In this document: positions 17,072-37,895 of the stretch, in pieces
How positions within the stretch are numbered: the stretch's first letter is position 1
Layout of the letters: each line of letters begins with the position of its first letter
Source of the DNA: an uncultured Veillonellaceae bacterium
GTDB lineage: Bacteria; Bacillota; Negativicutes; JARBTT01
Assembly (NCBI GenBank): GCA_963805085.1
Contig: CAWDTA010000003.1
Coordinates: 312,924 to 376,923, forward strand
Direction of reading: 5' to 3'
Length of the DNA: 64,000 nucleotides
Translations under genes and position numbers: made by a program
Notes under the pieces: generated by a model
What the model was told of the DNA's origin: nothing
Databases searched by the model: none
What the model saw: only the letters and a program-made list of their open reading frames with translations

Positions 17072-17091
17072 AAAAAATCAAACTAGCAACG

Positions 17092-17256
17092 CAAGATAGC
17101 ACTCCACACTAAAGTATGACAGTCTTGCATCTATTAAATCCAAGACCAACAATATCTCTTTGCCTAAACATATTGTTTCGGCGACTATCCCTTTTGATAC
17201 GCATCTTTGCTGGCAGCTCCGCGTAGCTACTGTTGATAAATCGCAACCTCTATCTA
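17092..17256 (-). ncRNA. Lysine riboswitch
   Basis: Minus strand GATAGAGGTTGCG...AGTA...AAAGG...CGCCGAA...GACTGTCA...GGAGTGCTATC hallmarks upstream of lysA. Confidence 0.92.
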
Positions 17257-17275
17257 TATTTATTAATTTTGCAAC

Positions 17276-25520: not shown

Positions 25521-25550
25521 TCTAAAAATGAAATAAAGGGGGCCGTCTTG

Positions 25551-26219
25551 ATGGCACATGATGGATATGATGACAATGCAATCGTGCTTAAACATAGTTT
25601 AAGTACCCGCATATTTCACTGGGGTTTGATTTTAGGCTTTTTGCCTGCTGCGTTAACGGGAATTATTATTTGGTTAAAACCAGGTAGTGAAGATTTAGTT
25701 GGCCTAGCGATGAAAATACACATCGTAGGTGCATGGATTTTATCGATCTCTTGCGTTTATTTCTTTCTGTTCTGTTATAAACGTGTCGTAGCATTTTGGC
25801 GAACCGCGTTTAACTGGACAGCGGATGATATTAAATGGATGTCAGTTTCAGGTGGTTATCCGCATAAAATTTTCTTAGGTAAAACAATTCCAGTACCGCC
25901 AATGGGCAAAATGAACTCTGGTCAAAAGATGCTTGGTATTATGGTGTTTTTTGGTACTCTTGTTGTAATTGTAAGTGGTTGGCTTTTATATGCGTTCCTT
26001 CCAATGGTTCCAAAGGAAATCGCACATTATGCAGATTTACTTCATTTATTTGTTGGCCTTTTCTTAACATTAGCAATTATCTGTGGACATATCGTTCTTA
26101 GTGTTTACAACTGGGGCGAATGTGTATGTATGTTTGGTGACGGAACAATGAAAGTTTCTGAAGCTGCACATCACAATGAATTATGGGTGAAAAACGAAAT
26201 CGAACCTGTAAAAAAATAA
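25551..26219 (+). CDS. Membrane cytochrome b subunit (FdnI/HydC type)
   Basis: RIFHW, KIH, KMNSGQK, LLH, GHI heme-ligand pattern over 4 TM helices. Confidence 0.88.
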   Translation: MAHDGYDDNAIVLKHSLSTRIFHWGLILGFLPAALTGIIIWLKPGSEDLVGLAMKIHIVGAWILSISCVYFFLFCYKRVVAFWRTAFNWTADDIKWMSVSGGYPHKIFLGKTIPVPPMGKMNSGQKMLGIMVFFGTLVVIVSGWLLYAFLPMVPKEIAHYADLLHLFVGLFLTLAIICGHIVLSVYNWGECVCMFGDGTMKVSEAAHHNELWVKNEIEPVKK

Positions 26220-26249
26220 GTTGAGCTAGTTGGCTTAACGCTAAATCGC

Positions 26250-26484
26250 CAGTAGACAAACAATGGACAGAAAGGCCGCGGGTCGGCGATAAGCACTCAT
26301 CTGCGTCGTTACAGTAAGGTACTGCTCGTCGACGTACGAAAGTACGACTCCTCGCACTCCCTTACTATGCCTAGCATCTGAGTACTTCTCACCAACCGGC
26401 AGCCTATCTTCGTACTAGTTTATAAGTGGAACGGATTTAGATGTTTTCTAAATCATTGACACAAATGTTTTATTTTGTCGACAG
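26250..26484 (-). repeat. Structured intergenic repeat/MITE-like element, copy 1
   Basis: 26252-26461 is a close reverse complement of 35965-36175; bounded by CAGTAGACAAA...TTTGTCGACAG imperfect inverted repeats. Confidence 0.85.
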
Positions 26485-26487
26485 CAT

Positions 26488-26537
26488 GAAATCGCCTGTT
26501 TATGAGTAGTATATTCATAAACAGGCGATTTCTTTTT
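26488..26537 (+). terminator. Intrinsic terminator after hydrogenase operon
   Basis: GAAATCGCCTGTTTATGA/TCATAAACAGGCGATTTC plus T-run. Confidence 0.75.
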
Positions 26538-35489: not shown

Positions 35490-35894
35490 ATGAAAATAAA
35501 GCGTATTGATACGACTTTTAGTACAGAAAAACTTCAAGAATCAAAAGATTTTTATATGGATCATTTTGGTTTTAAATTAGCTTATGAAAGCGATTGGTAT
35601 ATTGAGCTTGTAACGCCAACCGGAGACGCAGGTATTAGCTTTACACTTCCGCAAAGAGAAGAAGGCGAATTCTTCAATGGGAAAGGGATGATTTTATCCT
35701 TTGAAGTAGAAGATGTGGAAGCAGAATACAATCGATTAAAGGAACAGAATGTGACAATTTATCAAGATTTACAAGATAAGCCATGGGGCGAACGTAGTTT
35801 TGTAGTCGATGATCCAAATGGTGTACATGTTTATCTTTATAATTTGATTGAACAGACGGATGAGTATAAGGAATTGTATGCACCGTTCAAATAA
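35490..35894 (+). CDS. VOC/glyoxalase-bleomycin resistance family protein
   Basis: DFY..HFGF, LSFEVEDV, PWGERSF..DPNG. Confidence 0.88.
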   Translation: MKIKRIDTTFSTEKLQESKDFYMDHFGFKLAYESDWYIELVTPTGDAGISFTLPQREEGEFFNGKGMILSFEVEDVEAEYNRLKEQNVTIYQDLQDKPWGERSFVVDDPNGVHVYLYNLIEQTDEYKELYAPFK

Positions 35895-35964
35895 GCTAAG
35901 GTATATTGACATCGAGTAGATGAATTGCAACGAAAAGCAACGCATCTACTTCTATTTATATATT

Positions 35965-36176
35965 TGTCGATGATTTAGAAAATATCTAAATCCGTTCCAC
36001 TTATAAACTAGTACGAAGATAGGCTGCCGATTGGTGAGAAGTGCTCAGATGCTAGGCACAGTAAGGAGCTGCGAAGGAGTCGTACTTTCGTACGTCGACG
36101 AGCAGCTCTTTGCTGTAACGACGCAGATGAGTGCTTATCGCCGACCCGCGGTCTGTCTGTCCATAGTTTATCTACA
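35965..36176 (+). repeat. Structured intergenic repeat/MITE-like element, copy 2
   Basis: Reverse complement of copy 1; folds into a long interrupted stem with many G-U pairs in this orientation; ends TGTCGA...TCTACA. Confidence 0.85.
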
Positions 36177-36197
36177 TAAAAAAGGCTAAACTTGCGT

Positions 36198-37895
36198 TTA
36201 GCCTTTTTTTAGTATGTCTTGATAACGATACAATGCTTGTGTTTTAAATCTTGCCGTAATTTCGGCGTATGGCATTGGTTTACCAAATAGATAGCCTTGA
36301 ATATGGGAGCAGTTTTCCGCGCGTAAGAATTTTAACTGATCAATCGTTTCTACGCCTTCGGCTACAATTTCAAGTTTAAGATTTTTCCCAAGTCCTAAGA
36401 TTGCTTTTGCAATATGTGCACCATCGGAGTTATCACCGATATCACTAATAAAGGAACGATCAATTTTTAAAATATCAACAGGAAAACGTTTTAAGTAAAT
36501 AAAGGAAGAATACCCCATGCCGAAATCATCTAGTGATATTTTAATGCCCTTGTTTTTAAGATCCTGTAAAACGAGCATCGTATAATCAGCATCATTCATC
36601 GCTGCTGTTTCAGTAATTTCAACGGTTAACCATTCAGGTGCGAGGTTTGATTCGGTTAAACAATCAAAGATAACTTCTTTTAAATTCTTTTGTTGAAATT
36701 GTTTTGCTGATAAATTGACAGACATTGAAATTGGTGGGAGGCCCATTTCTTGCCATTCTTTATTATGTTTGCAGGCAGTTTTGATGACCCATTCACCAAT
36801 TGGGATGATTGTGCCGCAATCTTCGGCAACAGGGATGAAGTCTGCAGGTGAAATTAAGCCTTTACAAGGGTGGTTCCAACGAATCAATGCTTCTACGCCG
36901 ATGATAACGCCATTTACGTCAACTTGTGGTTGATAATAAAGTTCAAATTGATTTTCTTTTAGTCCGATGCGTAAATCATTTTCCATATCTAAGCGTTTTG
37001 CAATGTTAAGTTCCATTTCATCCATATAATATTGATATTTACCAGCACCTTGTTCACGTGAGCGGTGCATTGCAATTTCAGCCATTTTGATGAGTGTGTT
37101 GGTGTCATTGGCATCATCAGGAAATATAGCGATACCAGCGTTGGCATTGATATTAAAAGATTGATTATCAAATTTCCAAGATTTTTGAATTAGCTCGATC
37201 AGTGTACTTACTTGATCGGTAATCATATCTAAGGATTCAATATTAGATAATAATACAATAAAATCATCGCCGTTTAATCGACAGAGGTTATTAGGATTTT
37301 GTATATGTTCTTTTAGACGCTTTGCGACAATGATCAATAGGTTATCAGCAAAATCATGACCGAGTGTACTATTGATCATTTTAAAGCCGTCTAAATCAAT
37401 GAAGATTAATGCAGTTAGCTTGTTTTTCGATAGTGGTGAATTGATATAAGAAGTTAGTCTTTGGGTAAACAATATTCGGTTCGGTAATTTCGTTAATGGA
37501 TCATGGCTGGAAAGAAAAGCAACTTCTTCTAGATGCTTATTTTCCTCGGCCTTATAACGTTGAATTTCATTAGAATGGATCGTACTATAAGTAGTTAGTT
37601 CAAAATTTGCCAATTGTAAGGAATGCGTGCTCTTTTGATATTTTTTATATGTACGTACAATGCGCTTGGTTAATTTTTTTGATGAAATATAAATAAAGCC
37701 TGCTGTAGCTAACAGTAAAGTAATCGTTTGATAATAAGTGGTCATTGTATCTGATACGTTCAGCATTGGCAAGATCATTGTGGTTAGGCCAATAATCATA
37801 ATAGAATAAATACAATATATAGTAATCAACATCGTTGGTAATTTAGAAATATTACGACTCGTTAAAAAAGATCTTTTAAATTTGATTTTTGACAC
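36198..37895 (-). CDS. Membrane-anchored GGDEF-EAL protein (probable c-di-GMP phosphodiesterase)
   Basis: Two N-terminal TM segments; HDPLTKLPNR, degenerate NGDDF; intact EAL, EITE, DDFGMGYSS, KIDRSF, EGVE, QGY. Confidence 0.9.
   Translation of the reverse strand: MSKIKFKRSFLTSRNISKLPTMLITIYCIYSIMIIGLTTMILPMLNVSDTMTTYYQTITLLLATAGFIYISSKKLTKRIVRTYKKYQKSTHSLQLANFELTTYSTIHSNEIQRYKAEENKHLEEVAFLSSHDPLTKLPNRILFTQRLTSYINSPLSKNKLTALIFIDLDGFKMINSTLGHDFADNLLIIVAKRLKEHIQNPNNLCRLNGDDFIVLLSNIESLDMITDQVSTLIELIQKSWKFDNQSFNINANAGIAIFPDDANDTNTLIKMAEIAMHRSREQGAGKYQYYMDEMELNIAKRLDMENDLRIGLKENQFELYYQPQVDVNGVIIGVEALIRWNHPCKGLISPADFIPVAEDCGTIIPIGEWVIKTACKHNKEWQEMGLPPISMSVNLSAKQFQQKNLKEVIFDCLTESNLAPEWLTVEITETAAMNDADYTMLVLQDLKNKGIKISLDDFGMGYSSFIYLKRFPVDILKIDRSFISDIGDNSDGAHIAKAILGLGKNLKLEIVAEGVETIDQLKFLRAENCSHIQGYLFGKPMPYAEITARFKTQALYRYQDILKKG

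Follow-up and report, generated by a model that had tools for sequence, protein, structure and literature searches.

Why is an elaborate hairpin kept in many copies between bacterial genes: because the host uses it, or because the hairpin is itself what multiplies? The question is raised by two near-copies of a structured repeat in a stretch of 64,000 nucleotides from an uncultured Veillonellaceae bacterium (assembly GCA_963805085.1, contig CAWDTA010000003.1, positions 312,924 to 376,923; the whole stretch is called the window below). An initial annotation, made from the letters alone, had described the pair as a dispersed, strand-specific structured RNA element that could be mobile. We find that the element is mobile and lands at the feet of intrinsic-terminator hairpins, the whole hairpin then standing on both sides of it, and that its core is conserved across many genera as a one-strand fold with heavy compensatory change. 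It is probably best explained as a family of selfish, non-coding and non-autonomous mobile elements organized around one long irregular hairpin.

Alignment of the copies together with their flanks defines a non-coding repeat unit of 244-245 bp, with 15-nt inverted termini that start with CAG and end with CTG. The terminus pattern matches 19 times in the window's genome (G000, a 4.2-Mb assembly that is 83% complete), and the reversed control not at all. Both copies named in the initial annotation are present: a covariance model of the 150-nt core (R1), built from 57 sequences, scores 169.4 bits at 36012-36161(+) in copy 2 and at 26266-26414(-) in copy 1, compared with 41.6 and 57.1 bits, respectively, on the opposite strands. 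The repeats first delimited are therefore real, but their extent was drawn too narrowly. Copy 1 occupies 26250-26488(-), with its left inverted terminus intact and its right one degenerate. Copy 2, placed at 35967-36176(+) by BLAST to a full reference copy and alignment, covers only reference positions 30-239 of 245, so both of its termini are gone (the first ~29 nt and the last ~6 nt). No open reading frame (ORF) of at least 60 aa overlaps either copy. With the 212-nt stretch 35965-36176 as query, BLAST returned 46 segments in the assembly, which merge into 38 loci: 25 near full length, about nine without the hairpin apex, and a few fragments. We put the family in this genome at 37-38 loci, a number far above what chance would produce.

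Insertion at the feet of terminator hairpins

The suspicion of mobility is borne out, as filled and empty sites exist and copies 98% similar stand at different loci. Read in the orientation of the element, many copies present the same order of parts: an A-run, a hairpin, the element, the same hairpin again, and a T-run. We surveyed this arrangement in 54 copies with both ends, from G000 and two other genomes (G001 and G004), and accepted a flank repeat as a duplication when its score lay above the 99th percentile of 140 mismatched pairs of left and right flanks. An abutting direct repeat of 18-33 bp, itself a hairpin in every case, was found in 21 of the 54, with observed scores of up to 31 and a control maximum of 13.5. 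Of these copies, 39 had a hairpin abutting their left end and 26 one abutting their right, compared with 66 of 400 random positions. Nearest-neighbour similarity was 0.860 for copies with a duplication (n=21) and 0.793 for those without (n=33; Mann-Whitney p 0.0035), and by this measure the duplication-bearing copies are the youngest. The two most similar pairs of copies (0.98 and 0.96) both bear duplications, of differing sequence. Inverted termini, terminator targeting and hairpin duplication had all been missed in the initial annotation.

Empty sites were sought by comparing the flanks of nine G001 insertions that lack a counterpart among the G000 copies with the G000 genome. At locus L050 of G001, the 24-bp terminator hairpin AAACTACTGATTACTCAGTAGTTT precedes the element and is repeated after it; in the empty counterpart (G000:C4:173090-173225) a single copy of the hairpin stands with an A-run on one side and a T-run on the other, and the flanks otherwise match. 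Likewise, a 21-bp hairpin stands on both sides of the element at L034 in G001 and once at G000:C2:402870-403000. These two pairs prove that one hairpin corresponds to hairpin-element-hairpin, whether through insertion or precise excision. Other sites were less regular: at L067 the left hairpin copy is partly deleted, at L044 the element lies just 3' of a hairpin that is not duplicated, and at L038 G000 has an unrelated 35 bp at the matching site. For G000 insertions, no empty sites were recovered in G001, where the flanks are absent from the incomplete assembly or synteny is broken. Hairpin duplications also surround members from distant genera (L144, L176, L177 and L178), whose subfamilies keep the right terminus and not the left.

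Several individual sites deserve separate mention. At L055 and L060 of G001 the element stands without flanking hairpins exactly where G000 has a hairpin alone (G000:C5:156250-156520 and G000:C2:2021240-2021430). At G000:C2:236700 and its G001 counterpart, L040, the right duplicated hairpin has identical stems and a loop that is inverted between the genomes, a loop flip of the palindrome kind. Finally, at G000:C2:1985248-1985280 a 33-bp remnant consists of the two inverted termini only, beside a terminator hairpin and before a T-run; it may represent what internal deletions finally leave, or else a footprint.

A fold of one polarity

All of the helices that had been read from the sequence, and the CGTAC-TTTC-GTACG cap, are part of the minimum-energy RNA fold of 35965-36176, which has a free energy of -95.8 kcal/mol (z -9.0, 200 shuffles), compared with -64.6 kcal/mol (z -2.95) for the opposite strand. 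Of the differences between the two window copies that had been said to preserve pairing, C-G to U-G, U-G to U-A and G-U to G-C do so. In addition, two mismatches are present close to the apex of copy 1. The wider claim, that what is selected is a single-stranded fold with one polarity and not a symmetric DNA palindrome, holds across the family. We aligned 79 near-full copies out of 82 candidates, leaving aside L046, which a contig end truncates, and the internally deleted L027 and L028. RNAalifold assigned 44 pairs to this alignment, with 2929 Watson-Crick, 434 wobble, 36 A-C and 51 other cells; standard pairs make up 97.5% of cells on the sense strand and 85.9% on the other.

Because such cells are not independent events, a tree of the cores was used to infer changes by parsimony. 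Watson-Crick pairs changed to wobble pairs 73 times and to A-C mismatches 35 times (binomial p 3e-4), with 23 against three changes on internal branches and 50 against 32 on terminal ones. An ordinary palindromic DNA repeat, whose strand asymmetry stems from the founder copy or from biased mutation, would draw on the fact that copies share ancestors and wobble pairs by descent, so that cell counts overstate the events. The event counts nevertheless favour wobble pairs, and the bias in unpaired columns runs the opposite way: transitions in the 81 unpaired columns comprise 59 G>A and 45 C>T, 55 T>C and 29 A>G, so that mutation would favour A-C mismatches over wobble pairs. Moreover, distant members change both partners of most pairs and keep the same strand preference, and we regard a plain palindrome as very improbable. 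Folding energies favour the sense strand in 57 of 57 cores when RNA parameters are used and in 56 of 57 when those for DNA are used, and thus cannot separate RNA from single-stranded DNA.

Covariation is very strong among the diverged members. In a MAFFT alignment of 43 sense cores from distant loci, together with two close copies and a copy from a ribosomal RNA (rRNA) spacer of the window, conserved blocks alternate with freely covarying stems, and both partners change in 25 of 34 pairs. Paired cells amount to 95.1%, compared with 75.5% after shuffling, and wobble cells outnumber A-C cells by 100 to 13. The covariation score is 0.562, compared with 0.180 for shuffled alignments (none of 500 reached it) and 0.08-0.12 when the partners were slid. 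Read by eye, the conserved helix CAGAUGC/GCAGAUG contains two adjacent G-A oppositions, and another helix has one more. No Rfam 15 family matches the window copies, either at the gathering score or at E values up to 10, and none matches composites in G004 or distant members. Among RNA datasets, the only match is one soil metatranscriptome, with 7% of the words; its contigs, 85-95% alike, span 35979-36158 at a depth of 2-5 and cannot show strand or source organism.

The fold is far more widespread than its sequence. BLAST finds the element in 5 of 401 genomes of the class, whereas R1, at E values up to 0.001, matches 71 of 151 class genomes and 36 of 67 genera, mostly with many matches and in some with at least 20. 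At E values up to 1e-6, it also matches 9 of 150 genomes from elsewhere in the phylum; these too have more than one copy, with counts of 17, 12 and 10 in three of the nine. Since R1 gives the antisense of true copies 41-61 bits, strand was checked for distant matches; these proved strand-specific, one of them scoring 84 bits on one strand and 41 on the other, and another 132 and 35 bits. Members outside the class retain the conserved blocks, with compensations, and the internal-loop motifs are conserved across genera. In a collection of named genomes an exact 20-nt core motif occurs only in one metagenome-assembled genome of a Massilibacillus sp., at 15 loci; NCBI places this genus under Anaerosinus (Sporomusaceae, Negativicutes), and the genome of the window probably belongs to it or to a close neighbour. 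No record in the plasmid and phage collections contains the element.

In G004, a second conserved repeat of ~230 nt, with covarying stems of its own, precedes the element at ten loci (L093, L098, L100, L101, L104, L106, L107, L113, L114 and L115). Its left module contains a perfectly paired hairpin with a conserved apex and 6-8 basal pairs that are different in every copy, a pattern not easily explained by point mutation alone.

Host use, propagation and the moving enzyme

If the element is selfish, as we favour, its target would be recognized as an extruded hairpin or cruciform and broken at both feet, in which case the length of the duplication would follow that of the hairpin. The one-polarity fold would be required for propagation via a single-stranded intermediate, either RNA or single-stranded DNA, on which an enzyme supplied in trans would act, and only lineages that retain the fold would continue to multiply. 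Copies beside protein genes would be neutral passengers that decay. In highly transcribed rRNA and transfer RNA (tRNA) operons only sense copies would persist, which points to the folded strand being seen there as RNA.

The fate of copies after insertion can be followed at positions shared between genomes. In 12 positional pairs of G000 and G001 with flanks about 97-98% identical, six differ by large internal deletions, which start just inside the base of the hairpin at short direct repeats; others show clustered patches of difference that look like gene conversion. Two insertions occupy matching positions in G000 and G004, where the one neighbouring protein compared is 77% identical; one of them is window copy 2, which lies between the same two genes in both. 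Beside protein genes, 37 loci of G000 divide into 14 co-oriented with tandem genes, 14 antisense, 8 convergent, 0 divergent and 1 unclear. With respect to the leading strand, whose GC skew is about 0.16, 17 are co-oriented and 20 anti-oriented, without replication-strand bias.

The picture is different in operons of stable RNAs. When the best-hit loci of 20 genomes were inspected, eight lay inside rRNA, tRNA or 5S operons, all eight on the strand of the RNA genes: three in the spacer or just upstream of 23S, two between tRNAs, one upstream of tRNAs and two beside 5S. Ten further rRNA loci from five genomes gave four matches directly upstream of 23S, all sense. In total, 13 of 13 copies examined in such operons are co-oriented with transcription, often abutting the 5' end of a mature RNA, although these counts are not independent because several of the genomes are related. 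As a counter-case, L166, on reading of the sequence, faces the 3' end of a tRNA gene. In G000 the spacer alleles are two identical copies and six of an allele that is 77% identical to them, with four consecutive pairs exchanged.

These operons are the main ground for a rival explanation, a structured RNA module that serves the host as a processing or stability signal or as a small RNA, was copied around the genome and keeps its fold through host use. We consider this possible but clearly the less probable account. The uniform orientation in stable-RNA operons, often at a mature 5' end, and the conservation of internal-loop motifs across genera would both suit it, as would two observations that weigh against a selfish element: a spacer copy is present in all eight rRNA operons of G000, with compensatory changes between the two alleles, and the cores at the two loci matched between G000 and G004 are still 90% and 89% identical while the flanking non-coding DNA is scrambled, which could reflect host function. 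However, some rRNA operons of G004 and G128 lack the spacer match of R1, as do the operons examined in G019 and G078, and the matched cores are closer to paralogues of their own genome (up to 0.93-0.96) than to their positional counterparts, which fits gene conversion. Nor are sense copies beside protein genes better preserved, with 3 of 14 degraded compared with 2 of 14 antisense ones. The even split of orientation with respect to genes and to replication, the large deletions in half of the positional pairs at about 2-3% flank divergence, and the concentration of A-C changes on terminal branches (32, against 3 internal) all argue for an element that is selfish rather than host-serving. Further points count against our preferred account. 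Hairpin duplication is not detectable in 33 of the 54 two-ended copies, and the simple model accommodates L055 and L060 only if deletions or excision followed. At these loci, either the flanking hairpins disappeared after insertion and the other lineage precisely excised the element, or the element can replace a hairpin. No transposase, reverse transcriptase or integrase occurs among 65 ORFs that neighbour distant members, and no larger element that shares the termini was found in G000, G001, G004 or G092. In those four genomes (G000 being 83% complete) all end matches lie within the small copies, apart from the 33-bp remnant, and terminus pairs of opposite orientation occur only about 243 bp apart.

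Two kinds of enzyme would fit further rivals, each of which we think unlikely. The element could be a REPIN-like hairpin of single-stranded DNA that a RAYT-type or IS200/IS605-type Y1 (HUH) tyrosine transposase moves in trans. It has the same general shape, a long extragenic hairpin with conserved arm blocks and variable complementary stems; its sense strand is also the more stable one as DNA; and the Y1_Tnp family has 23 matches in G000 and others in G004, G128 and G078, being present in four of five high-copy genomes. But no Y1_Tnp match occurs in G066, a 100% complete genome with at least 20 R1 matches, and a copy is found within 2 kb of only 2 of the 21 Y1 genes, with ~0.7 expected by chance. 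Movement of the IS200/IS605 type is not known to leave a target duplication and shows a replication-strand bias, whereas here duplications are the rule and the replication orientation is 17 to 20. Alternatively, a folded RNA could be reverse-transcribed and integrated at nicked terminators with target duplications of variable length, in the manner of a short interspersed nuclear element (SINE). Such a retroposon would account for a fold that is polarity-specific irrespective of local transcription or replication, for duplications that vary in length, for sense copies in the most highly transcribed operons, and for the greater loss on one side: in 97 copies the left side is missing or replaced 32 times and the right seven times, and the right terminus is conserved across subfamilies whose left ends vary. 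RVT_1 genes occur in G000, G004 and G066, but none was found in G078 (100% complete, 19 R1 matches) or in G144; the window's subfamily has inverted termini like those of a DNA transposon; and a duplication that ends at the feet of a hairpin suggests recognition of DNA structure. To our knowledge, retroposition of RNAs other than introns has not been established in bacteria. In its fullest form, this idea would make the element a class-wide bacterial counterpart of SINEs without a gene of its own, its structured RNA arising from rRNA and tRNA operons or from a promoter in its own left end, copied back into DNA and integrated at nicked terminator hairpins, and this too we hold to be improbable.

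As a separate observation on the enzymes of G000, frames of ~255 aa with a weak Y1 match lie less than 2 kb from a reverse-transcriptase match, on the same strand, at C2:1595132-1597737 and C2:799817-802102; the genome has about 14 such Y1-like frames.

The window copies and their relation to known systems

Within the window, copy 2 lies between convergent genes (ORFs 35490-35894(+) and 36198-37895(-)). Immediately to its right, between these genes, is a terminator hairpin with a flanking A-run and T-run (36184-36210), and a related hairpin occupies the same position in G004. To its left, in place of the lost left module, the sequence reads as a hairpin with a T-rich tail (35915-35951(+)), which is also found at the positional counterpart in G001, L048. 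The left end of copy 1 is abutted by a terminator hairpin with a 20-pair stem and a T-run (26488-26532(+), from a terminator scan). This hairpin serves the plus-strand gene 25548-26219, whose transcript would traverse copy 1 in antisense. At the other end of the copy, a short direct repeat of the final bases of the hairpin can be read at 26243-26249(-); the flank match there is 11 nt long with a score of 8.5, under the control threshold, and the repeat would be either a remnant or a short target duplication. A promoter scan picked out one inward-facing 9-of-12 match within copy 1's left module; over the whole region it found 47 matches where 36.7 were expected (sd 5.9), ~1.7 sd above shuffles.

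A third, diverged member lies at 60710-60840(+) in the 16S-23S spacer (R1 44.6 bits, E 9e-11). It has the orientation of the rRNA and ends ~10 nt upstream of the 23S gene, which starts at 60850. About 130 nt upstream of this copy, the spacer contains a stretch (60561-60576) that is a putative boxA antitermination motif of Firmicutes rRNA operons. The 16S gene of the operon (58282-59950) is 1669 nt long, compared with 1533 positions in the model, and has a 112-nt insertion near 58361-58473, at a point of the first variable hairpin region for which the model allots 3 nt; R1 does not match the insertion. Elsewhere the window contains an ordinary lysine riboswitch at 17089-17260(-) (108.6 bits).

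If the insertion rule is true, this mobile element reads the shape of DNA, an extruded hairpin, and not its sequence, and it duplicates the whole terminator. Each flanking gene would then keep a terminator after insertion, which may explain why dozens of copies are tolerated. The 150-nt core is a strongly covarying fold without an Rfam entry. Nearly half of the class genomes sampled carry it, and its position immediately upstream of genes for 23S rRNA and tRNA makes it a candidate for the study of RNA processing in poorly studied bacteria. The family is also well suited to telling apart selection that favours propagation and selection that favours a host function. We found neither hairpin-sized target duplications nor such an element of Negativicutes in the open full-text literature; subscription journals lay outside this search, and an earlier description is possible.

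The REPINs are the nearest analogue described. According to a review of them (PMC3337134), these are extragenic, multi-copy long hairpins with conserved arm blocks and variable complementary stems, the spacers being conserved only as hairpins, and they are considered to function as a single-stranded fold and to move in trans; the element described here is likewise non-coding and of that shape. It differs in that it duplicates the whole target hairpin, in that it has no consistent link with Y1 transposase genes, in its greater length (a 150-nt core in a 245-bp unit) and the inverted termini of the window's subfamily, and in its host range, which is Negativicutes and relatives and not proteobacteria.

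Structured bacterial MITEs (miniature transposable elements with inverted repeats), such as Correia/NEMIS, ERIC, BOX and RUP, are small intergenic elements with inverted termini that are co-transcribed with mRNAs and fold into hairpins, and the accessible part of a 2024 review of prokaryotic MITEs does not mention the hairpin-duplication signature (PMC10969869). The element resembles them in being small, non-coding and present in many copies with terminal inverted repeats. Their target duplications are short and of fixed length, often TA, and known insertion sequences are their source. In the present element, by contrast, the duplication is 18-33 bp long and follows the target hairpin, the terminus searches of G000, G001, G004 and G092 found no parent insertion sequence, and the fold is polarity-specific and conserved across bacterial families.

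With Cas1-Cas2 and casposons, a whole palindromic unit is duplicated when integration takes place at its two borders. The likeness to CRISPR repeat duplication would be one of analogy and extends to whole-unit duplication only, since here a fixed element is inserted, into ordinary terminators. Bacterial group II introns of class C also insert at intrinsic-terminator hairpins; these are ribozymes of >600 nt with a reverse-transcriptase gene, and they insert after the hairpin without duplicating it. A class C intron is itself ruled out as the identity of the element, which is a 245-bp unit without an ORF and without a match to an Rfam intron. Eukaryotic SINEs, finally, are non-autonomous and related to highly transcribed structured RNA genes, with duplications of variable length and frequent loss of the 5' side. 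The element shares with them the lack of autonomy, the variable duplications and the frequent loss of one side, but it lacks an A-rich tail, its termini are inverted in the window's subfamily, and RVT_1 is missing from some carrier genomes. Set beside these systems, what is new here is the insertion signature, the class-wide distribution and the sense-only orientation in stable-RNA operons.
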